DNA from: Escherichia coli
GTDB lineage: Bacteria; Pseudomonadota; Gammaproteobacteria; Enterobacterales; Enterobacteriaceae
Reading direction: 5' to 3' (one strand)
Length of the DNA: 64,000 nucleotides
NCBI RefSeq assembly: GCF_001677475.2
Contig: NZ_CP015229.1
Shown: one piece after another, positions 9,243 to 44,465 of the stretch
Numbering within the stretch: the stretch's first letter is position 1
Layout: each line of letters begins with the position of its first letter
The notes under the pieces: generated by a model
What the model saw: only the letters and a program-made list of their open reading frames with translations
Database searches by the model: none
Told to the model about the DNA's origin: nothing
Program-made: the position numbers and the translations under genes

Positions 9243-9250
9243 GCACATCA

Positions 9251-9409
9251 ACGGTTTGACGTACAGACCATTAAAGCAGTGTAGTAAGGCAAGTCCCTTC
9301 AAGAGTTATCGTTGATACCCCTCGTAGTGCACATTCCTTTAACGCTTCAAAATCTGTAAAGCACGCCATATCGCCGAAAGGCACACTTAATTATTAAAGG
9401 TAATACACT
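9251..9409 (+). promoter_or_regulatory. cspA: cspA long 5'UTR (cold-box, RNA thermosensor leader)
   Basis: Leader begins ACGGTTTGACGTACAGACC, containing the cold-box-like TGACGTACAGA at 9256..9266, and runs about 159 nt to the ATG; the cspA leader is an established cold-responsive RNA element. Confidence 0.75.
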
Positions 9410-9622
9410 ATGTCCGGTAAAATGACTGGTATCGTAAAATGGTTCAACGCTGACAAAGGCTTCGGCTTCATCACTCCTGACGATGGCTCTAAAGACGTGT
9501 TCGTACACTTCTCTGCTATCCAGAACGATGGTTACAAATCTCTGGACGAAGGTCAGAAAGTGTCCTTCACCATCGAAAGCGGCGCTAAAGGCCCGGCAGC
9601 TGGTAACGTAACCAGCCTGTAA
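9410..9622 (+). CDS. cspA: Major cold-shock protein CspA
   Basis: 70-aa [41 protein letters not shown]...; RNP1 motif KGFGFI and RNP2-like VFVHF. Confidence 0.97.
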
Positions 9623-9650
9623 TCTCTGCTTAAAAGCACAGAATCTAAGA

Positions 9651-9678
9651 TCCCTGCCATTTGGCGGGGATTTTTTTA
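9651..9678 (+). terminator. Rho-independent terminator of cspA
   Basis: Stem TCCCTGCC / GGCGGGGA followed by T-run TTTTTTTATT at 9671..9680. Confidence 0.8.
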
Positions 9679-9809: not shown

Positions 9810-9962
9810 TTACTCTTTTAAATTGCAGGCTAAAAATGCCGCCAGCTCATAACTCCCCTGTTTAATATGCAATTCACACAGTGAATCTCTTATCATCCAG
9901 GTGAAAAATAAAAGCGTGAAACAAATCACTATTAAAGAAAGCAATCTATATTTCTGCGGCAT
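9810..9962 (-). CDS. hokA: Hok-family type I toxin (small membrane peptide), HokA-like
   Basis: 50-aa product MPQKYRLLSLIVICFTLLFFTWMIRDSLCELHIKQGSYELAAFLACNLKE: single transmembrane helix plus conserved Cys, characteristic of Hok/Gef peptides. The same frame extends upstream to an ATG at 10022 (70 codons). No IS element interrupts the locus. Confidence 0.8.
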   Translation of the reverse strand: MPQKYRLLSLIVICFTLLFFTWMIRDSLCELHIKQGSYELAAFLACNLKE

Positions 9963-10284
9963 TCCCAGCCCCCTGTGTTGATTTCCAACGAGTAAGAGGC
10001 TAACCTTATGGTGTCTATGCATAGAGGGGCCTCACTTTGATTTATAGTCAGGTGGGGCTTTTCTCTGTCTGCCTTTCGGTGAATACCTGAGACAAACAGT
10101 CTCAAGCACCCGTGGCTATTCTAGCTTAATAAGTTTGTTTCTTCTCCTTGATATAATCCTAAAAAAATCTCATAAAATTAATATATGAGATAATCTTTAT
10201 TCAGCAGAAGATTATTAAAGGTTGCTGTATTATTTAGCGATAAAAAAAGCCTGCCAGATGGCAGGCTTTTTAATAACGGCGTTA

Positions 10285-24167: not shown

Positions 24168-24203
<36 letters not shown>

Positions 24204-28924: not shown

Positions 28925-28929
28925 AAATT

Positions 28930-29028
28930 GCCTGATGCGCTACGCTTATCAGGCCTACATGATTTCTGCAATATATTGAATTTGGTAGAATTTGTAGGCC
29001 GGATAAGGCGTTTTAGCCGCATCCGGCA
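28930..29028. repeat. BIME: pair of inverted REP elements
   Basis: GCCTGATGCGCTACGCTTATCAGGCCTAC (28930..28958) and GTAGGCCGGATAAGGCGTTTTAGCCGCATCCGGCA (28994..29028). Confidence 0.85.
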
Positions 29029-29075
29029 TAAACAAAGCGCACTATCCCTGCGTTGAGAAACGCCGGAAAAACGTT

Positions 29076-29549
29076 TCAAACAGGCTGCTGCCGTAGCCGA
29101 TGCCGCTGCACTTTCTCGACATCCATGCACTGCAATGCCTTTGTCGGGCAGGCTTCAACACAGGCCGGTCCCGTCTCCCGATGCCAGCACAGATCGCACT
29201 TAATCGCCCTCGCCTTTTTGCGCGAAGAAACGACCTCCATCGCACCAAACGGGCAAGCCAGCATACAGCTTTTACAGCCAATGCAACGTGTTTGTTCAAC
29301 GAAAATATGCCCATGTTCGCGGCTTATCGCGCCAACAGGGCAGACATTCGCGCACGGTGCATCTTCACACTGATGACAGGCTACCGCCGTGGTCCAGCAG
29401 TGGTCTTTAATGACACGAATACGGGAAATAAACTCGTCTGGTGACAACGCAGCGCAATCCTGATTCTCCTGATGCGACACTGCGCAAGCCACTTCACAGG
29501 TACGGCAACCGATACATTTCGTCGCATCCGCAATAATAAACCGGTTCAT
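29076..29549 (-). CDS. ysaA: 4Fe-4S ferredoxin-type protein YsaA (HycB-like electron-transfer subunit)
   Basis: Start at ATG 29549 (MNRFIIADATKCIGCRTCEVAC...), 157 aa; four Cys clusters of CxxCxxCxxxC type. Confidence 0.88.
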   Translation of the reverse strand: MNRFIIADATKCIGCRTCEVACAVSHQENQDCAALSPDEFISRIRVIKDHCWTTAVACHQCEDAPCANVCPVGAISREHGHIFVEQTRCIGCKSCMLACPFGAMEVVSSRKKARAIKCDLCWHRETGPACVEACPTKALQCMDVEKVQRHRLRQQPV

Positions 29550-29792
29550 GATCACTCCTTTGCACTAAAACAGCAGAGTGCCAGAGAGCGCGTCTCTACT
29601 GCTTTGATCCAACGAAGGAAATGTTAAAGTTTTGGCACTTGTCCAAAGCGTTATTTGATCGCGCCCTGGTCGTCCCTGACAGTAAATCCCAGTTCATTAG
29701 AAATAGCCTGCGCGGTTTCACGCAGTGGTTTCAGGAGATTTTTCTCCCCCACCTGTTTCAGACGTGATGTCGAAAGAGAAATCGACACGGCA

Positions 29793-30608
29793 CTACGAAT
29801 TGATATGTTCCTTGCTGTAACGCCGCTTCCACGCTGCTGGCGTTAAACCGGTGTGTTTGCGAAAAATCTGCCGGAAATAGCCAACGTCATTAAACCCGCA
29901 CAACGCCGCCACTTCCGTGAGCGATCGCGCTTCGCTAATTAACAGCTTTTCGGCTTCGCGCACCCGCTGGCGATGGATTGCTTCTGTTAACGTCAGATGA
30001 AACACCCGCCGGTAGACGCGCCCAAGATAATCGGCATTGCAGTACAGCTCGCGGGCCAGAAGCGCCGTAGAAAGCGGGCGATGATATTGCGTGCGGATCA
30101 GTTTCTGCGCTTTCCAGGCAAGGGTGGTGCCTGCGCCATCGGCCTGTTCATCAAGACGCGCGTCACGGGTGAGCTGCTGCAAAATGAGCAGCACAATAAA
30201 CTCCAGCGCCGGAGTGCGTTGATGCTTTTCCTGTTCGCTTAAGAACTGGCGAAACAGGGCCACCAGCGCCTGCGGATCGACAACCTTCGTTTGTTGCGGC
30301 ACGCTAAGATGAGTAAGCCAGCGAGGGTCGTTGTCCGGCGCTTTAACCTCAAAATGCAGCCAGTAAAATTTGAGATCGGCGGGAAAATCCTCCACCCCAA
30401 CATGTTGTCGGTTCGGCCAGAGTAATAAACTCTCTCCCGCATCGACCAGAAATATCCGTTCTTCTTCCTGAATCGTTAATCGACCTTTTTCGACAAAGAT
30501 AATTTCCCATGACTCCAGCCGCCTTGCAGGATGCCTCCCTACGCCACGGGAAATAAATAATCCACCATTTTGCACTTTAATCGGTAACGTCATGGATAAT
30601 TCGAGCAT
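29793..30608 (-). CDS. AraC/XylS-family transcriptional regulator (cupin-like N-domain plus C-terminal HTH)
   Basis: 271 aa; N-terminal effector-binding region; C-terminal AraC HTH (...LTEVAALCGFNDVGYFRQIFRKHTGLTPAAWKRR). Divergent from the downstream transporter gene. Start could be ATG 30608 or 30593. Confidence 0.8.
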   Translation of the reverse strand: MLELSMTLPIKVQNGGLFISRGVGRHPARRLESWEIIFVEKGRLTIQEEERIFLVDAGESLLLWPNRQHVGVEDFPADLKFYWLHFEVKAPDNDPRWLTHLSVPQQTKVVDPQALVALFRQFLSEQEKHQRTPALEFIVLLILQQLTRDARLDEQADGAGTTLAWKAQKLIRTQYHRPLSTALLARELYCNADYLGRVYRRVFHLTLTEAIHRQRVREAEKLLISEARSLTEVAALCGFNDVGYFRQIFRKHTGLTPAAWKRRYSKEHINS

Positions 30609-30833
30609 TGATATGTAATTTCCCGCTTATTCATTAATGATTAAACACATTACCTTTTGATTATTAATCAAAAATATTAATTTCACCTGATCCATTTCAC
30701 ACTTTTAAATTCAGGTCGGAATCGTCACCTTTTTTTACTCTTTTCTCGCCTTGTTGATATTCCCGTTCACGGCAGAATTAATCAGGTCATTTCAATAAAA
30801 CTAAAAATTGCTCCCTATTCACGAGGAATATCT

Positions 30834-32234
30834 ATGACCTCTACACCGATTACTACCGCTGATATCGCTAAAGGTAAAATTGACGATGCGTTATCTGTAC
30901 GGGAAAAAATAGGCTACGGCCTGGGTGACGCAGGCGGCACCGTAATAACTTGCCTGATCATGAATTTTCTCACCTTTTTCTACACCGACGTTTTTGGATT
31001 AACTCCGGCGCTGGTTGGCACGCTGTTTATTGCACTGCGCGTGTTTGATGCCATCTCCGACCCGGTGATGGGCGTCATTGCCGACCGGACGCAAAGTCGC
31101 TGGGGGCGCTTTCGCCCGTGGCAGCTATGGATTGCCATTCCCATCGGCATTATCGGCATCCTGACGTTCACCGTGCCAGATGCCAGCATGGGAGTAAAAA
31201 TCGCCTGGGCGTTCGGTACTTACCTGCTCCTTTCAGTCGGTTATACCGCCATCAACGTACCGTACTGCGCGCTGATCAACACCATGACCACCCGCCACAA
31301 TGAAGTGATCTCCTGCCAGTCCTGGCGATTCGTTCTCTGTGGCGTAGCGGGATTTCTGGTTTCGGTAGGCTTACCGTGGATGGTAGATCTCTTCGGTCAG
31401 GGTAATGCCGCGCGCGGCTATCAATTGGGCGTCGGCGTGCTGTGCGCCATTGCCGTGGTGATGTTCCTGTGCTGTTTTTTCTGGGTTCGTGAACGGGTGC
31501 CACTCTCCACAATGGGGAAATTTACCCTGCGCGAACATCTTGCCGGGCTGCGGAACAACGACCAACTGCTGCTGATGCTGGTCATGTCTTTCCTGCTGAT
31601 TAACGTCTTTAACATTCGCGGCGGTGGGTATATGTACTTCATTACCTACGTCTTACAAGGCAGTACGGGCTACACGTCGCTGTTCTTCACCATGGTCACC
31701 TTCGCCTCCATTATCGGCTCGGTGATTGTCAGCCCGTTAACGCGGCGTTTCGATACCGTCAAAATTTACTACTACACCAACCTGCTCCTCGCTGCGCTGG
31801 CGGTGTTGATGTGGTTCCTGCCCTCCGGCCCGGCTTATCAAACGCTGTGGCTGGCGGTGATCCTCGGTAATGGCGTAATTCTTGGCTTCACATTGCCACT
31901 GCACTTCTCATTGATGGCCTTTGCCGATGACTACGGCGAGTGGAAAACCCGCGTACGTTCTTCCGGCATGAACTTCGCCTTCAATCTGTTTTTCATCAAG
32001 CTGGCCTGGGCCTCCAGCGCCGGGATCATCAGCCTGCTGTTTATTTTTGTCGCCTACCAGCCTGGCGTGGAAAACCAGACCGCCAGTTCGCTTGGCGGGA
32101 TCGCGGCGATGGAAACATTACTGCCTGCGCTATTCCACCTGCTGCTGGCAGGGGCGATCCGCTTTTGCAAACTCAATAATCCTATGATGTCACGCATAGC
32201 TACCGACCTGCGTCAGCGTCATGTACAGCCTTAA
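30834..32234 (+). CDS. GPH-family (glycoside-pentoside-hexuronide) cation symporter, MelB/YicJ-like
   Basis: 466 aa, about 12 transmembrane helices; GPH hallmark [25 protein letters not shown]; GAGGA Shine-Dalgarno 8 nt upstream of the ATG. Confidence 0.85.
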
Positions 32235-32244
32235 GGAGCACAAG

Positions 32245-34215
32245 ATGAACATTTCGGAAGTCGATCTGCATAAACTGACGGTCAGCGATCCGTTCCTCGG
32301 TCAGTACCAACAACTGGTCCGCGACGTGGTGATTCCTTATCAGTGGGATGCCTTGAACGATCGTATCCCAGAAGCGGAACCCAGCCATGCGATTGAAAAC
32401 TTTCGCATTGCCGCCGGACTTCAGGAGGGTGAATTTTACGGGATGGTGTTTCAGGACAGCGACGTCGCCAAATGGCTGGAAGCGGTAGCCTGGTCGCTGT
32501 GCCAGAAGCCGGACGCCGAACTGGAAAAAACCGCCGACGAGGTAATCGAACTGATCGCCTCCGCCCAATGCGAAGACGGCTATCTCAATACTTACTTTAC
32601 GGTAAAAGTACCCGAAGAACGCTGGAGCAATCTGGCGGAGTGTCATGAACTTTACTGCGCCGGTCATCTGATTGAAGCCGGAGTCGCCTTCTTCCAGGCC
32701 ACGGGCAAGCGGCGCTTGCTGGAAGTGGTTTGCCGTCTGGCCGATCATATCGACAGCGTATTTGGTCCAGATGAAAGTAAGTTACACGGTTACCCTGGTC
32801 ACCCGGAAATTGAACTGGCACTGATGCGTCTGTATGAAGTGACCGAAGAGCCGCGCTACCTGGCACTGACGAACTATTTTGTCGAACAGCGTGGTGCGCA
32901 ACCGCACTATTACGACCAGGAATATGAAAAGCGCGGGCAGACCTCGCACTGGCACACCTACGGCCCGGCGTGGATGGTGAAAGATAAAGCCTACAGCCAG
33001 GCGCATTTGCCCATCGCACAGCAACAAACCGCCATCGGACATGCAGTACGCTTTGTCTATCTGATGACCGGCGTCGCGCATCTCGCGCGTTTAAGTCACG
33101 ATGACAGCAAGCGTCAGGACTGCCTGCGGCTGTGGAACAATATGGCCCAGCGTCAGTTATATATTACCGGCGGCATTGGCTCGCAAAGCAGCGGCGAAGC
33201 GTTCACTAGCGATTACGATCTGCCGAATGACACGGTATACGCTGAAAGTTGCGCCTCCATCGGCCTGATGATGTTTGCCCGACGAATGCTGGAAATGGAA
33301 GGCGACAGTCAATATGCCGATGTGATGGAGCGCGCACTGTACAACACCGTGCTCGGCGGCATGGCGCTGGATGGCAAACATTTCTTCTATGTGAATCCGC
33401 TGGAAGTACATCCAAAATCGCTGAAATTCAACCATATCTACGATCACGTTAAACCGATCCGCCAGCGTTGGTTTGGCTGCGCTTGTTGTCCGCCAAATAT
33501 CGCCCGCGTGCTGACCTCGATTGGTCATTATCTCTACACGCCGCGTGAAGATGCGTTGTATATCAACATATACGCAGGAAACAGCATGGAAGTGCCGGTA
33601 GAAAATGGCACGCTGCGCCTGCGGGTTAGCGGGAACTATCCGTGGCAGGAGCAGGTGACGATTGCGGTTGAATCGCCCCAGCCGGTACGTCATACGCTGG
33701 CTTTACGTCTGCCGGACTGGTGCACACAGCCGCAGATCATATTGAATGGGGAAGAGGTCGAGCAGGATATTCGTAAAGGGTATTTGCACATTACCCGCGA
33801 ATGGCAGGAGGGCGATACGCTGAATCTGACTTTGCCGATGCCGGTACGCCGCGTTTACGGTAACCCGCTGGTGCGTCACGTCGCCGGAAAAGTGGCGATT
33901 CAGCGCGGCCCGCTGGTGTATTGCCTGGAACAGGCCGACAACGGCGAGTCACTGCATAATCTGTGGCTGCCCACCGATGCGCCATTTACGACATTTGAAG
34001 GCAAGGGATTGTTTAGCCATAAGATCTTAATCCAGGCACCGGGTTACCGGTATGAACAGAGCAATCCAGAGCAGCAACCGCTGTGGCATTACGACAGCGC
34101 GCCAGCCAAACGCCAGACGCAAACTCTGACCTTTATCCCGTGGTTTAGCTGGGCCAACCGGGGTGAAGGCGAAATGCGGATCTGGGTGAATGAGGAAAAG
34201 CATTGCCATCCGTAG
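32245..34215 (+). CDS. Glycoside hydrolase family 127 (DUF1680, beta-L-arabinofuranosidase-like) protein
   Basis: Start at ATG 32245 (AAGGAG Shine-Dalgarno at 32233..32238), 656 aa. Motifs E-S-C (YAESCASIG) and C-A-C-C-P-P-N (WFGCACCPPNIARVL) match what I recall of the Zn/Cys catalytic centre of GH127 enzymes. Immediately follows the GPH symporter. Confidence 0.75.
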   Translation: MNISEVDLHKLTVSDPFLGQYQQLVRDVVIPYQWDALNDRIPEAEPSHAIENFRIAAGLQEGEFYGMVFQDSDVAKWLEAVAWSLCQKPDAELEKTADEVIELIASAQCEDGYLNTYFTVKVPEERWSNLAECHELYCAGHLIEAGVAFFQATGKRRLLEVVCRLADHIDSVFGPDESKLHGYPGHPEIELALMRLYEVTEEPRYLALTNYFVEQRGAQPHYYDQEYEKRGQTSHWHTYGPAWMVKDKAYSQAHLPIAQQQTAIGHAVRFVYLMTGVAHLARLSHDDSKRQDCLRLWNNMAQRQLYITGGIGSQSSGEAFTSDYDLPNDTVYAESCASIGLMMFARRMLEMEGDSQYADVMERALYNTVLGGMALDGKHFFYVNPLEVHPKSLKFNHIYDHVKPIRQRWFGCACCPPNIARVLTSIGHYLYTPREDALYINIYAGNSMEVPVENGTLRLRVSGNYPWQEQVTIAVESPQPVRHTLALRLPDWCTQPQIILNGEEVEQDIRKGYLHITREWQEGDTLNLTLPMPVRRVYGNPLVRHVAGKVAIQRGPLVYCLEQADNGESLHNLWLPTDAPFTTFEGKGLFSHKILIQAPGYRYEQSNPEQQPLWHYDSAPAKRQTQTLTFIPWFSWANRGEGEMRIWVNEEKHCHP

Positions 34216-41232: not shown

Positions 41233-43077
41233 TTATTTTTCGGGAAATAATAATGCATCGCGCAATAAATGATCATTTCCACGACGCCGCGTAAAGCCAA
41301 TGCGGTCAAAATATTCCAGAATCTGAATTGCCAGCTTTCGGCCTACACCTAAGCGATCGCGGAAATCCGCCGCGCAGGTTGAGCCACATTCCTGATCGAG
41401 ATCGCGGATCATATTGGCAAATTCAACAATCCGATCATTACGGTAATAACGATCTTTGACGATCGCCGTAATTATCCCCTGCTGTGCCGCCTGGCGTAGC
41501 GTCAAGCGCATTGCCTGCTCGTCGGTTCCCGTCTCTTTTGCCAGGTCACGCACCCACCACGGCTCGTCACCAAACAGCGGCTCTGCTTTTTGCCAGATGG
41601 CCTGCTGCTCTTCGCTGAAGCCCGCTTTGTGATCCGGCAGATGCAGCCAGCCGTGATGACTGAGGATGTCGCCGCTTTCGCGCATCTTTTCAATCAGCAA
41701 CAGTACCAGCGCTTCATCTTCCATTGGCAACGCCATACGTCGCAGACGTTCGCGCCCAGGACCAGGTTCATCGCGATGTTGCTCATGATAAGTCGCTAAT
41801 GTGTCGAGAATTTTCCGCTGCCAGCGGGCGGCAACCGGCGCATTCAACAAGCTATAACCAGCCTGAATATAGCCAGGCTGTTGCAATAGTTCGCGCATCC
41901 CTTCGCCGTTGAGCTGCCGTGCCCAGGCGAAATCGGCAAGGTTAACCGCGCCGCGTTCCAGATGAACAGATAACGCATCGGCATCGCTCTGCGCCCGTGC
42001 CAGTGACGCCAGCCATTGCAGATATTCCGGCTTACGTTTACCGCGACGCGGCGGGTTAAGCATCACCACACGCGCCCCCGCCAGCGTGTTGCGGGCCGAG
42101 ATATCGCGCAGCACTAAGCGATCGTTATCCGCCAGCCACAGCGGCGTGTCGAACACCAGCTCGGCAAGGTTATCTTCCAGCAGCGAAACGCGCCCCGTAA
42201 CATGGCTGGCGGCGTGGTGAATATGCAGCGGCTGCCACTGGGTCAGCGGTGTATGAGTTTGAAGCTCGACAATCACCCGTGTGAACGGCTCTGGCGGCAC
42301 ATCGGCAAGCAGCCAGTCGCCACGGTTAATCTGCTCTTTTTCCGCATCACCCGCGATGTTAAGTGCGATACGCTGCCCGGCATGGGCGGTTTCTGTTGGC
42401 TGGTTTTGCGCATGCAGCGCACGTACACGCATCGATTTATTTACACCAGTCAGCCATAGTGAATCGCCTACCTTCACTTCCCCGCTTAACGCCGTACCGG
42501 TGACGACCAGCCCGGCACCTTTTACAGTAAATGCGCGGTCGATCGCGAGGCGGAAACTATGTTGGCTGGCGTGTTCACGTTCTGGTAACTGAAGCAGATG
42601 CTCGCGCAGGGCATCAATTCCCCGACCTTCGGTTGCTGCGGTGATAAACAGTTTTGCCTCAGCAAAACCGTATTCCCGCAGCACCTCCTTTACCTGGCGT
42701 TCAACCTCATCAACACGCGCTTCGTCCACGCGATCGGCTTTGGTCAGCGCCACTGTCAGCATCGGGTTACCAGTCAGCTGCAAAATCGCCAGATGCTCAC
42801 GGGTCTGTGCCATCACGCCGTCATCGCACGCCACCACCAACAGCGCGTGATCGATACCACCAACGCCCGCCAGCATGTTGGAAAGAAACTTTTCATGACC
42901 GGGAACGTCGATAAAACCAGGCACGCGGCCATCCGGCTGCGGCCAGTAGGCATAACCGAGATCGATGGTCATGCCGCGCTTTTTTTCTTCCGGCAGACGG
43001 TCGGCATTTACGCCAGTAATCGCCTGCAATAAGGTTGTTTTGCCGTGGTCAACGTGTCCGGCAGTCGCAATAATCAT
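41233..43077 (-). CDS. selB: Selenocysteine-specific translation elongation factor
   Basis: 614 aa; GTPase G1 motif GHVDHGKT at the N-terminus; C-terminal extension; 4-nt overlap with selA. Confidence 0.95.
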
Positions 43078-44465
43078 TTCAACAACATCTCCAAAAACCG
43101 TTGCTCATCTTCAAGGCAGCGTAAATCCAGCCACAATCGTCCGTCATAAATACGACCAATCACCGGCACTGGCAATTCACGCCAGCGGGCGGCTAATGAC
43201 TCAAGGTGGCTACCGCGTCCATCATGGGGTGTAAACGTTAATGCCGCGCTCGGCAGGCGATCAACCGGCAGCGAACCACTGCCAATCTGCGAAAGACATG
43301 GCATAACCTGGACTGCAAACTCCGCGCCGTAATGTGCGGCAAGGGGAGCCTGTAAACGTTGTGCCTGGATTTGAATGACCTCTGCGCTGCGGGTAAGCAG
43401 GCGCAGGGTCGGTAATTTTTCACTCAGCGCCTCAGGGTGTAAATAAAGACGCAGCGTGGCTTCCAGCGCCGCGAGGGTCATTTTATCCGCGCGTAATGCA
43501 CGCTTCAGTGGATGGCTTTGCAGGCGGGCGATCATCTCTTTTTTACCAACGATAATCCCTGCCTGCGGCCCGCCTAACAACTTGTCGCCGGAGAAGCTCA
43601 CCAGGCTGACGCCCGCCGCAATCAACTCCTGCGGCATCGGCTCTTTCGGCAAACCGTACTGGCTAAGATCGACCAGCGAACCACTGCCTAAATCAGTCAC
43701 TACGGGAACATCCAGTTCTTTGCCAAGCGCCACCAGTTCAGCTTCATCTATCGCTTTGGTGAACCCCTGAATGCTGTAGTTACTGGTATGTACTTTCATC
43801 AACAGTGCGGTATTTTCATTCACCGCCTGACGATAATCATTCGCGTGCGTGCGGTTGGTGGTCCCCACTTCGTGCAGGGTACAGCCAGCCTGACGCATGA
43901 CGTCAGGGATACGAAACGCGCCGCCGATCTCCACCAGTTCGCCACGAGACACCACCACCTCTTTACCGCTGGCAGTGGCCGCCAACATCAATAACACCGC
44001 CGCCGCATTGTTATTAACGATACAGGCATCTTCCGCCCCCGTAATACGGCACAGCAGCTGCGCCAGCGCACGATCGCGATGTCCGCGTCCGGCGTCGTCC
44101 AGATCGTACTCCAGCGTCACCGGCGAACGCATAGCCTGCGCAACGGCTTCCACCGCGGCTTCTGCCTGTAAAGCTCGCCCAAGATTGGTATGCAGCACGG
44201 TTCCCGTCAGGTTGATCACCGGACGCAGCGCGCTCTGCGCTTCTTTCGTCAACCGGGCATCGACTTCTTGCGCCCAGTTCTCACACCACGCGGGCAGCGT
44301 CTGGCTGTCACGAATCACTTCTCGCGCTTCGTCAAGCATCTGACGCAGCAATTCCACCACGCGGGTGTGACCATAAGTATCACGCAAAGAAAGGAAGGAG
44401 CTATCGCGCAATAAGCGATCAATAGCCGGAAGTTGACTATAGAGGGAACGCGTTTCGGTTGTCAT
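43074..44465 (-). CDS. selA: L-seryl-tRNA(Sec) selenium transferase
   Basis: 463-aa ORF recognised as SelA ([21 protein letters not shown]...); candidate PLP-lysine region [13 protein letters not shown]. Confidence 0.95.

Follow-up and report, generated by a model that had tools for sequence, protein, structure and literature searches.

YsaA, a solitary four-cluster ferredoxin of Escherichia coli, as a probable electron-transfer subunit linked to formate dehydrogenase H

A ferredoxin gene that stands apart from any catalytic gene raises the question of which enzyme supplies electrons to its product and which one receives them. Such a gene, ysaA, is located on the minus strand of the 64,000-nucleotide stretch of E. 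coli DNA analyzed here (the window). A previous sequence-only reading had described its product as a stand-alone four-cluster ferredoxin flanked by REP elements, whose redox partner was unknown. The features of the locus are as follows.

29076..29549, minus strand: ysaA (yiaI) coding sequence, an open reading frame and a RefSeq ysaA CDS of the same extent, 157 aa plus stop
29555..29560, minus strand: Shine-Dalgarno sequence AAGGAG, read from the sequence, 5 nt ahead of the ATG at 29549
29561..29650, minus strand: upstream region with three blocks kept across genera, presumably a promoter or leader of ysaA itself
29578-29588, minus strand: block CTCTCTGGCAC of the conserved upstream region
29601-29609, minus strand: block GATCAAAGC of the conserved upstream region
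29629-29638, minus strand: block GTGCCAAAAC of the conserved upstream region, TGACAAAA in other genera
28929..29030, no strand assigned: BIME of two inverted REPs in the avtA/ysaA convergent intergenic region, between both stops
29651..29791, minus strand: 3' end of a yiaJ remnant (IclR family), a pseudogene, incomplete IclR-family CDS in RefSeq; not part of ysaA
29793..34215, no strand assigned: strain-variable sugar module, from Pfam and NCBIfam matches and annotation; not part of ysaA
29793-30608, minus strand: AraC-family regulator of the sugar module (Pfam/NCBIfam)
30834-32234, plus strand: GPH/MFS symporter of the sugar module (Pfam/NCBIfam)
~32245-34215, plus strand: GH127 beta-L-arabinofuranosidase-like hydrolase of the sugar module (Pfam/NCBIfam)

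The open reading frame comprised 474 nt and the RefSeq annotation matched it at both ends; the gene had thus been named correctly. The ORF tool also listed a GTG at 29555, which sits within the Shine-Dalgarno sequence and is an unlikely start. A purine-rich GGAG-like block was observed at the Shine-Dalgarno position in other genera as well when the upstream regions were aligned. ysaA was single-copy and full-length in 5423 of the 5426 complete E. coli genomes, in which it was always convergent to avtA (malS-avtA><ysaA). The position beside avtA was also found in Citrobacter, Salmonella, Kosakonia, Enterobacter, Kluyvera, and one further locus (L013), and synteny extended across at least eight genera. 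Between genera, the dN/dS of ysaA was 0.08-0.22; the gene is under purifying selection. ysaA is a core Enterobacteriaceae gene that encodes a soluble protein of the cytoplasm, 157 residues long. The allele in the window agreed with K-12 ysaA in its start, its length, and its place beside avtA, was 97-99% identical to annotated ysaA, and carried the private substitutions S51C and D73G, neither of which lies in the ligand motifs. No molybdoenzyme or hydrogenase gene was found within approximately 12 kb on either side of ysaA, in agreement with the absence of an adjacent catalytic partner reported previously. ysaA is an already described gene with a dedicated paper, and the observation is real and ordinary; because the gene belongs to the textbook-level inventory of E. 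coli, its confirmation adds nothing new.

Subsequently, the cysteine clusters were examined. The 16 ligand cysteines of YsaA form the groups C12-x2-C-x2-C-x3-C22 (I), C58-x2-C-x4-C-x3-C70 (II), C89-x2-C-x2-C-x3-C99 (III), and C118-x2-C-x8-C-x3-C134 (IV), which match the family order CxxCxxCxxxC / CxxCx4CxxxCP / CxxCxxCxxxCP / CxxCxnCxxxCP and align residue for residue with those of HydN and HycB. The sequence-only reading had expected four clusters of the CxxCxxCxxxC type; all four groups were indeed complete on alignment, whereas the strict spacing occurred only in groups I and III. Among 92 diverse homologues, 13 of the 16 cysteines were invariant and three were at least 90% conserved, and each ligand cysteine was found in 112-121 of 121 close homologues. 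The Pfam model Fer4_11 matched residues 57-144 with 47.7 bits (cutoff, 26.2), and other Fer4 models also scored over their cutoffs. HycB (7z0s_B) was matched by sequence with an E value of 2.6e-36; DmsB, NrfC, FdnH, and PsrB were further sequence or fold matches. An AF2 model calculated from the 92 diverse homologues had a pLDDT of 94.5 and a pTM of 0.86 (an input of 60 close homologues gave a pLDDT of 50.5 and was unusable). When this model was searched with Foldseek, the TM score was 0.79 (rmsd 2.4) for HycB 7z0s_B, 0.82-0.83 for HDCR HycB3/HycB4 (7qv7_A/B), 0.69 for FdnH, and 0.67 for PsrB. The model consists of a fused pair of 2x[4Fe-4S] ferredoxin domains, and the four predicted cubane clusters, lying in a row, would make an electron wire approximately 40 Å long. 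The cysteines and the HycB matches support the previous assignment of YsaA as a four-[4Fe-4S] ferredoxin-like protein, of the electron-transfer-subunit type of formate hydrogenlyase and DMSO-reductase-type complexes.

The description of ysaA as flanked by REPs holds for its 3' side (28929-29030) only; on the other side, a REP consensus scan of the window found no REPs between ysaA and the sugar module. The arms of the BIME (~28929-28960 and 28993-29030) are complementary, corresponding to inverted repeats I1 and I2, and contain REP consensus cores at 28945-28958 (plus strand) and 28994-29007 (minus strand) with 0 mismatches each. The window held 12 matches to the REP consensus against 0.42 expected, the next ones being at 24190 and 34212. 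The BIME, which as a query matched approximately 21 places per E. coli genome, had an RNA fold z of -4.0 and is predicted to form the 3' end of both the avtA and the ysaA transcripts; a marginal Rfam match to ES036 was also obtained at 28951-28993 (minus strand). In comparison with the K-12 ysaA locus, the upstream neighbor in the window is an O157-type AraC/MFS/GH127 module and not an intact yiaJ. The module stands in place of K-12 yiaJ-sgbE and left behind the yiaJ remnant, which aligned to the intact yiaJ of K-12-type strains. A query running from the remnant into the 5' portion of the AraC gene was covered to at least 80% by 426 of the 5426 genomes, and the same three-gene module was found at the ysaA position in Kluyvera.

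Approximately 100 nt before the ATG of ysaA were conserved in six genera with different upstream genes, and the upstream blocks were common to Escherichia, Citrobacter, Salmonella, Kosakonia, Kluyvera, and locus L013 despite the differing upstream gene. Because this region is kept in spite of such differences and the downstream gene is convergent, ysaA is likely to be monocistronic, a property that is not provable by sequence. A sigma-70 promoter scan on the ysaA strand gave no site upstream of ysaA, and the same scan gave no intrinsic terminator after it. A conserved TGGCAC, located 31 nt before the ATG, resembles the -24 element of sigma-54 promoters, and hydN carries CTGGCAT. However, the -12 position was TT or GT in all six genera, without the GC of sigma-54; accordingly, a sigma-54 promoter for ysaA was unsupported. 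An FNR site was rejected as well, since the half-site ATCAA alone was conserved and the left half was mismatched. A leader hairpin between CUCUG and the Shine-Dalgarno region was also rejected, as RNAalifold gave no consensus structure. A genomic-SELEX peak of sigma-E has been reported in the ysaA/yiaJ spacer (PMC5493296). In the upstream region TCAAA was invariant, whereas the AACTT-like -35 element was not conserved and lay 19 nt off, compared with approximately 16; control of ysaA by sigma-E is a weak lead.

The closest paralogue of YsaA in E. coli is HydN (b2713), with an identity of 62-65%. Both share the N-terminus MNRFIIAD, all 16 cysteines, and two further conserved cysteines, C32 and C141. 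On the HydN equivalog model NF007658 (NCBIfam), YsaA scored 220 bits, below the cutoff of 260, and in the tree it formed a separate clade beside HydN (bootstrap 72% and 62%). Judged from these comparisons, YsaA is a paralogue of HydN and not HydN itself. Furthermore, ysaA lies outside the hydN-hypF operon, and the linker between cysteine groups III and IV is 18 aa in YsaA, 13 aa shorter than that of HydN (31 aa), and 50 aa in HycB.

Phenotypes of both genes have been published. In the study by Pinske in 2018, benzyl-viologen-linked FDH-H activity was decreased to 57% by deletion of ysaA, to 28% in a ΔhydN ΔysaA strain, and to 1% when hycB was deleted too (PMC6004506). The dye-linked effects of YsaA and HydN are therefore similar and additive. 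Complementation between them was incomplete: the defect of ΔysaA was restored by ysaA or by hydN, whereas ysaA in trans failed to complement ΔhydN and further lowered the activity (PMC6004506). This failure indicates that the functions of the two proteins are not identical. It also bears on the idea that ysaA is a redundant duplicate of hydN, functionless on its own and kept by chance. The high identity, the mild phenotype, and the complementation of ΔysaA by hydN would be consistent with such a duplicate. Nevertheless, we consider it highly improbable, as the gene has been retained intact, in single copy and in synteny, with low dN/dS values, the reciprocal complementation failed, and the short III-IV linker is distinctive of YsaA.

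In the same study, H2 production, Hyd-3 activity, and the amount and migration of FdhF were unchanged in ΔysaA, ΔhydN, and the double mutant, and so were the activities and migration of nitrate reductase, FDH-N, Hyd-1, and Hyd-2 (PMC6004506). ysaA was 2.7-fold up under anoxia (PMC6004506); this increase and the deletion phenotype indicate that the gene is expressed. Two-hybrid partners of YsaA were FdhF, HydN, HycB, HycF, and AegA, the last being the strongest (PMC6004506). The view that its redox partner is unknown is consequently outdated: the FDH-H phenotype and the FdhF and AegA interactions put the donor side as known. The deletion phenotype, interaction screen, and fdhF co-occurrence that had been proposed as experiments were largely available already.

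One explanation of these data is that YsaA, like HydN, is a holding or assembly factor, which transiently binds newly made FdhF and shields its surface Fe-S cluster, or preserves the competence of that cluster, until FdhF is handed over to HycB in FHL, with no separate acceptor. Pinske raised this possibility in 2018, and the two-hybrid signal with FdhF was obtained with T25-FdhF only (694 MU; threshold, 600 MU) (PMC6004506). Moreover, an earlier proposal viewed HydN as a 'pool of small subunits', both YsaA and HydN were absent from purified FHL (PMC6004506), and no acceptor complex has been found. However, the unchanged H2 production, Hyd-3 activity, and FdhF in the mutants mean that FHL is assembled without need for YsaA or HydN. 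The conservation of all 16 ligand cysteines under purifying selection suits an electron carrier, and relatives of YsaA share operons with Fdh-alpha and AegA/YgfT, of which they are stoichiometric partners. A holding function thus seems unlikely to us.

The two-hybrid data contain much stronger signals than that with FdhF. YsaA and AegA gave 5867/6150 MU, a value exceeded in the table only by HycB-AegA (6482 MU), and YsaA gave 4237 MU with itself, 4608 MU with HydN, and approximately 4000 MU with HycB (PMC6004506). Weak signals were also recorded with FdnH (905 MU) and NarH (927 MU) (PMC6004506), so the contacts of YsaA may be promiscuous ferredoxin-ferredoxin contacts. Since the self and cross signals far exceed that with FdhF, YsaA could be regarded as part of an Fe-S 'nanowire' or hub, in which it would oligomerize both with itself and with HydN, HycB, and the ferredoxin domain at the N-terminus of AegA, perhaps by way of its C-terminal helix; a mixed wire would pool electrons among several anaerobic enzymes. 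Indeed, the nearest folds after HycB in the Foldseek search were those of filament formers (7qv7_A/B, 9mqx_E/G, and 8c0z_C). By sequence and model, YsaA shares with HDCR HycB3/HycB4 (7QV7) and with AorA (8C0Z) and WorS (9MQX) of tungsten aldehyde oxidoreductases, all of which form wires, the fold (TM 0.72-0.83) and, as a prediction of the AF2 model, a C-terminal helix at residues 144-154. The filaments of those polyferredoxins depend on such a helix (PMC10413684, PMC12318220). In contrast to these polyferredoxins, the tail of YsaA is short and variable, being poorly conserved among orthologues and truncated in Kluyvera, and catalytic partners are not co-encoded. In addition, when the cell also makes the native partners, a two-hybrid signal between Fe-S proteins may stem from a bridged or unspecific contact. 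We therefore regard a wire of this kind as improbable.

The comparison with HycB (PDB 7Z0S/7Z0T), the best match in both sequence and fold, was more informative about the acceptor. The two proteins have an identity of 38-47% and the same four cluster-binding motifs, and both are reported partners of FdhF. In contrast, YsaA lacks the 32-residue insertion of HycB between motifs III and IV as well as its long C-terminal tail. The III-IV loop of HycB docks onto HycF and HycE (PMC9474812); that YsaA lacks this hydrogenase-3 docking loop is new here. Unlike hycB, ysaA is outside the hyc operon, and H2 production is independent of it. YsaA is not a hydrogenase-3 subunit.

We also examined the gene neighborhoods of relatives. 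All five of the sampled relatives with 47-51% identity adjoined Fdh-alpha genes, AegA/YgfT-type genes, or both, and no other enzyme class was found in the sampled neighborhoods. This location of relatives outside Enterobacteriaceae, beside genes for FdhF-type formate dehydrogenases or AegA/YgfT-type flavoproteins, is also new here. In Serratia, a true aegA gene was followed after 15-22 nt by a HydN/YsaA-like gene (23 contigs). A ygfT-like gene was followed by a ygfS-like gene in 28 Enterobacterales loci, in 16 of which an FdhF-like gene was within 7 kb; the three were contiguous in Erwinia (ygfT-ygfS-fdhF). YgfS and the Serratia 'HydN' belong to the protein family of YsaA (46-47% identity), and YgfS presumably bridges FdhF to YgfT. 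These results also concern the proposal that YsaA is the beta-subunit of another molybdoenzyme or hydrogenase, encoded elsewhere and unrelated to FdhF. Family likeness to DmsB, NrfC, TtrB, PsrB, and HybA, together with the weak FdnH and NarH signals, would agree with such a role. However, the corresponding enzyme activities were unchanged in the mutants, the closest relatives in sequence and fold (HycB, HDCR HycB, and HydN) are all linked to formate dehydrogenase, and the neighborhoods point to the same enzymes; hence, we give this proposal very little weight.

The best explanation overall is probably that YsaA is a beta-subunit of FdhF that passes the electrons of formate not to hydrogenase 3 but to a different acceptor, most likely AegA. 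YsaA would dock on FdhF in the manner of HycB, as an alternative beta-subunit, and carry the electrons of formate oxidation away from it. An acceptor other than hydrogenase 3 is expected because YsaA is without the long III-IV loop that docks HycB onto HycF and HycE. The Fe-S flavoprotein AegA would be the likeliest acceptor. In that case, YsaA would serve AegA as a small ferredoxin partner in the way that YgfS serves YgfT, and the ysaA gene would have become separated from the flavoprotein gene in Enterobacteriaceae. We consider it quite probable that YsaA is an FdhF-linked electron-transfer subunit; that AegA is its physiological acceptor is a possibility to which we attach less than even confidence.

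Several points count against these assignments. The YsaA-FdhF signal is barely over the threshold, and the phenotype of ysaA was measured with an artificial dye; both weigh on the link to FdhF. An AegA-FdhF interaction was not detected by two-hybrid, and deletion of aegA gave no added FDH-H defect (PMC6004506). In E. coli, ygfT and ygfS are adjacent, whereas aegA is solitary; ysaA and aegA are approximately 1 Mb apart and both solitary in E. coli and close relatives, so their pairing is inferred, not encoded. In the genera sampled, ysaA orthologues always stood alone and never directly downstream of an aegA/ygfT-type gene, unlike the genes for YgfS and the Serratia 'HydN', which directly follow the flavoprotein gene. 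The solitary position makes it less likely that YsaA is itself a YgfS but does not bear on whether it functions in the same way. The neighborhoods considered belong to paralogous lineages, namely those of YgfS, Serratia 'HydN', and HDCR HycB, and not to orthologues of YsaA; in the tree, the AegA-linked protein of Serratia was joined to the YsaA/HydN clade with a bootstrap below 50%. The Erwinia ygfT-X-fdhF operon (P0136) was rejected as a context of the YsaA lineage, as the tree and a genome scan placed P0136 in the YgfS lineage; consequently, it is family-level evidence only.

More tentatively, YsaA may be the 'lost' small subunit of AegA, and FdhF-YsaA-AegA may constitute a soluble formate:acceptor oxidoreductase acting from formate to urate or another substrate. 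The Serratia aegA-hydN-like operon and E. coli ygfT-ygfS would represent the pairs that are still together, while aegA and ysaA would have drifted apart in Enterobacteriaceae. The layout would match that of the contiguous ygfT-ygfS-fdhF of Erwinia, and the complex might be a short polyferredoxin wire capped by a flavoprotein, like Aor(AB)nC. The neighborhood pattern and the missing docking loop make bridging of FdhF to AegA by YsaA or HydN cheaply testable.

FdhF associates only loosely with formate hydrogenlyase and seems to supply electrons to other routes. Iwadate and Kato are reported to have described, in 2019, formate-dependent degradation of urate in E. coli. Anaerobic urate use by E. 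coli depends on formate, AegA, and YgfT and is of importance for purine turnover in the gut. If the proposal is true, FdhF-YsaA-AegA would be the missing pathway in which formate produced by fermentation serves to reduce urate or another substrate rather than protons.

The interval 29076-29549 (-) coincided exactly with the RefSeq coding sequence of ysaA (yiaI), 474 nt encoding 157 amino acids. The elements around it in the window were as follows.
29651-29791 (-), same strand as ysaA: 141-nt 3' remnant of yiaJ, annotated as a pseudogene
29555-29560 (-): Shine-Dalgarno sequence AAGGAG, 5 nt 5' of the ysaA ATG at 29549
about 28929-29030: BIME, two inverted REP elements, in the gap between avtA and ysaA

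A GTG two codons 5' of the ATG, returned by the ORF tool, was rejected as a start because it lies inside the Shine-Dalgarno sequence and is not credible. When a 1.1-kb query around ysaA was used, matches were obtained in 5425 of the 5426 complete E. coli genomes; the coding sequence alone was found as one full-length chromosomal copy in 5423 of the 5426, and the local chromosomal order in E. coli is xylFGHR-bax-malS-avtA-ysaA. Across genera dN/dS was 0.08-0.22, which, with between-genera dS saturated, is a qualitative sign of purifying selection only. Two substitutions, S51C and D73G, are private to the YsaA allele of the window, and both lie outside the ligand motifs: Ser51 and Asp73 are present in E. 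coli SCU-316, WP8-S18-ESBL-07 and O157:H7 PV15-279, and identity to the window's coding sequence did not exceed 99.2% in any complete genome of the collection. Cys51 was observed in 8 of 121 close YsaA homologues. The observation on ysaA is real and well above chance, and the gene is already known as a named, partly characterised E. coli gene.

YsaA contains 19 cysteines, of which 16 are arranged as four groups.
Group I: C12-C15-C18-C22, strict CxxCxxCxxxC
Group II: C58-C61-C66-C70, 4-residue gap, like HycB and HydN
Group III: C89-C92-C95-C99, strict CxxCxxCxxxC
Group IV: C118-C121-C130-C134, 8-residue gap, like HycB and HydN

The four complete cysteine clusters proposed by the sequence-only reading were therefore confirmed; its description of all four as CxxCxxCxxxC-type holds strictly for groups I and III, whereas groups II and IV have wider gaps. 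Against 92 diverse homologues, 13 of the 16 ligand cysteines were invariant and the remaining three were at least 90% conserved. Two non-ligand cysteines, C32 and C141, were kept in YsaA orthologues and HydN (110 and 114 of 121 close homologues, respectively) but are lacking in HycB, the four-cluster subunit of formate hydrogenlyase (FHL); a disulfide, an extra metal site and a contact surface are possibilities for them.

Pfam Fer4_11 and several further Fer4 models exceeded their cutoffs on YsaA. The top NCBIfam model was HydN (220 bits, under the equivalog cutoff of 260), followed by the N-terminal domains of the Fe-S flavoproteins AegA and YgfT. [quoted passage not shown] The AlphaFold model gave a pLDDT of 50 with a shallow alignment and 94.5, with a pTM of 0.86, with a deep one. 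This model superposed on 7z0s_B with a TM of 0.79 and an rmsd of 2.4 A, on 7qv7_A/B with a TM of 0.82-0.83, and also on polyferredoxin subunits of tungsten aldehyde oxidoreductases, ahead of PsrB, ArrB and FdnH, which are beta-subunits of the classical kind.

The earlier interpretation of YsaA is right in kind. The statement that its redox partner is unknown is out of date on the donor side, which was addressed when Pinske in 2018 examined exactly ysaA (PMC6004506). In that study YsaA was the nearest paralogue of HydN in E. coli, at 62% identity (62-65% in our alignments), and ysaA was reported to be 2.7-fold up under anoxia. Benzyl-viologen-linked activity of formate dehydrogenase H (FDH-H, FdhF), relative to wild type, was 57% in the ysaA deletion, 59% in the hydN deletion, 28% in the double mutant and 1% when hycB was deleted in addition (PMC6004506). 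Neither the ysaA and hydN single mutants nor the double mutant differed from wild type in H2 production, hydrogenase activity or FdhF protein; NAR, FDH-N, Hyd-1 and Hyd-2 were unaffected, and the ysaA mutant was complemented by ysaA or hydN (PMC6004506). In the two-hybrid assay, with a threshold of 600 Miller units, YsaA gave 694 with FdhF, 4237 with itself, 4608 with HydN, about 4000 with HycB and 5867 / 6150 with AegA, the last being among the highest in the table and exceeded only by HycB-AegA (6482) (PMC6004506). Pinske interpreted HydN and YsaA as alternative small subunits carrying FDH-H electrons to non-hydrogen-producing acceptors (PMC6004506). The FHL cryo-EM paper describes FdhF as loosely bound and possibly contacting other proteins, citing for such contacts the Pinske work and a formate-dependent urate pathway (PMC9474812), and a 2025 review mentions HydN as a structural component of FHL-2 in Trabulsiella (unpublished data).

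Cysteine groups III and IV are joined by a linker of 18 residues in YsaA, against 31 residues in HydN and 50 in HycB, whose loop at this place docks onto HycF and HycE (PMC9474812). Compared with HycB, YsaA keeps the four-cluster wire and is without the part by which HycB connects to hydrogenase 3, which fits the absent H2 phenotype and the absence of YsaA from purified FHL. The best fold neighbours after HycB, namely HDCR HycB3/4, AorA and WorS, are Fe-S nanowire polymers that polymerise via a C-terminal helix (PMC10413684, PMC12318220). A C-terminal helix was predicted in YsaA at residues 144-154, and the self and cross two-hybrid signals with family members were strong (PMC6004506). On a bolder reading, YsaA could therefore form short mixed Fe-S wires; the YsaA tail, however, is poorly conserved.

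YsaA had been described as stand-alone, and indeed no catalytic oxidoreductase gene was found near ysaA. Beyond the yiaJ remnant lie genes for an AraC-family regulator, a GPH/MFS symporter and a GH127 (beta-L-arabinofuranosidase-like) hydrolase (module and remnant, 29651-34215), in place of the yiaJ-yiaK...sgbE region of K-12-type strains, which concerns 2,3-diketo-L-gulonate. A query spanning both the remnant and the 5' portion of the AraC gene reached at least 80% coverage in 426 of the 5426 complete E. coli genomes, with the best match in O157:H7. Across genera avtA is constant beside ysaA and the upstream neighbour varies.
Salmonella, Enterobacter: yiaJ
Citrobacter: yiaT
Kosakonia: aldB, with selA-selB just beyond
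Kluyvera: AraC/MFS/GH127 module as in the window

In Enterobacteriaceae as a whole, the slot from ysaA to yiaT/aldB seems to be a hotspot for the recombination of sugar modules. The genes selB and selA, required for the selenocysteine of formate dehydrogenases including FdhF, are at 41233-44465, 12-15 kb from ysaA; with fewer insertions between, the distance is 1.6-6 kb in Kosakonia, Kluyvera and a third comparison locus, L013. The arrangement selAB-(yiaY)-aldB-ysaA><avtA appears to be ancestral, and the closeness of selAB may be fortuitous or may faintly reflect a functional connection with selenoprotein formate dehydrogenases. Elsewhere in the window, strong Rfam matches ordinary for the region were the cspA thermoregulator 5' UTR (501 bits, 9250-9677, +) and the sok antitoxin RNA of the hok/sok locus (120 bits, 9960-10111, -).

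On the 3' side, avtA is convergent to ysaA across a 151-nt gap with a strong RNA fold (z = -4.0). The earlier statement that REP elements flank ysaA applies to this side; none occurs on the 5' side, and the next copies are at 24190 and 34212. A marginal Rfam match to the ES036 (CssrF) sRNA (28951-28993, -; 38.9 bits against a gathering score of 37.6) sits exactly in the 33-nt spacer between the REP arms, on the ysaA strand, and may represent simply the linker motif of the BIME or else a stable fragment from the 3' UTR of the ysaA mRNA.

About 100 nt 5' of the ysaA ATG (29561-29650, -) were kept in six genera despite differing upstream genes, with the blocks TGACAAAA (GTGCCAAAA in E. coli), GATCAAAGC and CTCTGGCAC...GTTTTA, CTCTGGCAC being located 31 nt 5' of the ATG. 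Together with the convergent orientation of the downstream gene, this conservation points to transcription of ysaA by itself, probably from a promoter of its own. A TGGCAC looks like the sigma-54 -24 box, as at hydN, although the GC of the -12 element is absent. The conserved region fitted no consensus for sigma-70, FNR or sigma-E, and no conserved RNA structure was found there. Genomic SELEX with sigma-E is reported to give a peak in the ysaA/yiaJ spacer (PMC5493296).

Close orthologues of YsaA, which share at least 63% identity and come from Enterobacteriaceae, are without exception encoded alone, whereas more distant family members are not. All five sampled relatives of 47-51% identity adjoin a gene for Fdh-alpha (TIGR01591) and/or an AegA/YgfT-type flavoprotein; one of these clusters is HDCR-like, and one of the Fdh-alpha genes is broken at its selenocysteine codon. 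A true AegA equivalog gene (1140 bits, cutoff 1003) was followed 22 nt on by a HydN/YsaA-like gene, and the same pair, 15 nt apart, was observed on 23 contigs of Serratia fonticola. Furthermore, a scan with one genome per species gave 28 Enterobacterales loci in which a ygfT-like gene is immediately followed by a small four-cluster ferredoxin. Sixteen of these loci have an FdhF-like gene no more than 7 kb away, and in two Erwinia species it is contiguous (ygfT-ygfS-fdhF). In a neighbour-joining tree, these ferredoxins fell in the YgfS lineage, and the Serratia AegA-linked protein grouped beside the YsaA/HydN clade at a node with less than 50% bootstrap. In E. coli K-12, ygfT-ygfS are adjacent and aegA is solitary.

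In many genera (L021-L046, other Enterobacterales ygfT-ygfS loci), an FdhF-like gene was located about 2 kb upstream of ygfT-ygfS on the opposite strand, and a second GltD-like flavoprotein gene, matching AegA residues 251-662 at about 30% identity, about 2.5 kb downstream. The K-12 ygfT-ygfS locus has neither. The loci of the other genera look like a more complete formate-linked purine/urate redox island than that of E. coli.

The gene neighbourhoods of the relatives point to a family rule, in which the partners of the small four-cluster ferredoxin are FdhF and an AegA/YgfT flavoprotein. By analogy with its paralogues, YsaA, perhaps with HydN, would be a detached partner of AegA, in agreement with the very strong YsaA-AegA two-hybrid signal. 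Electrons would then pass from FdhF via YsaA/HydN to AegA, parallel to the route from YgfS to YgfT, and the remaining value of the observation is this sharpened, testable hypothesis on the acceptor side.
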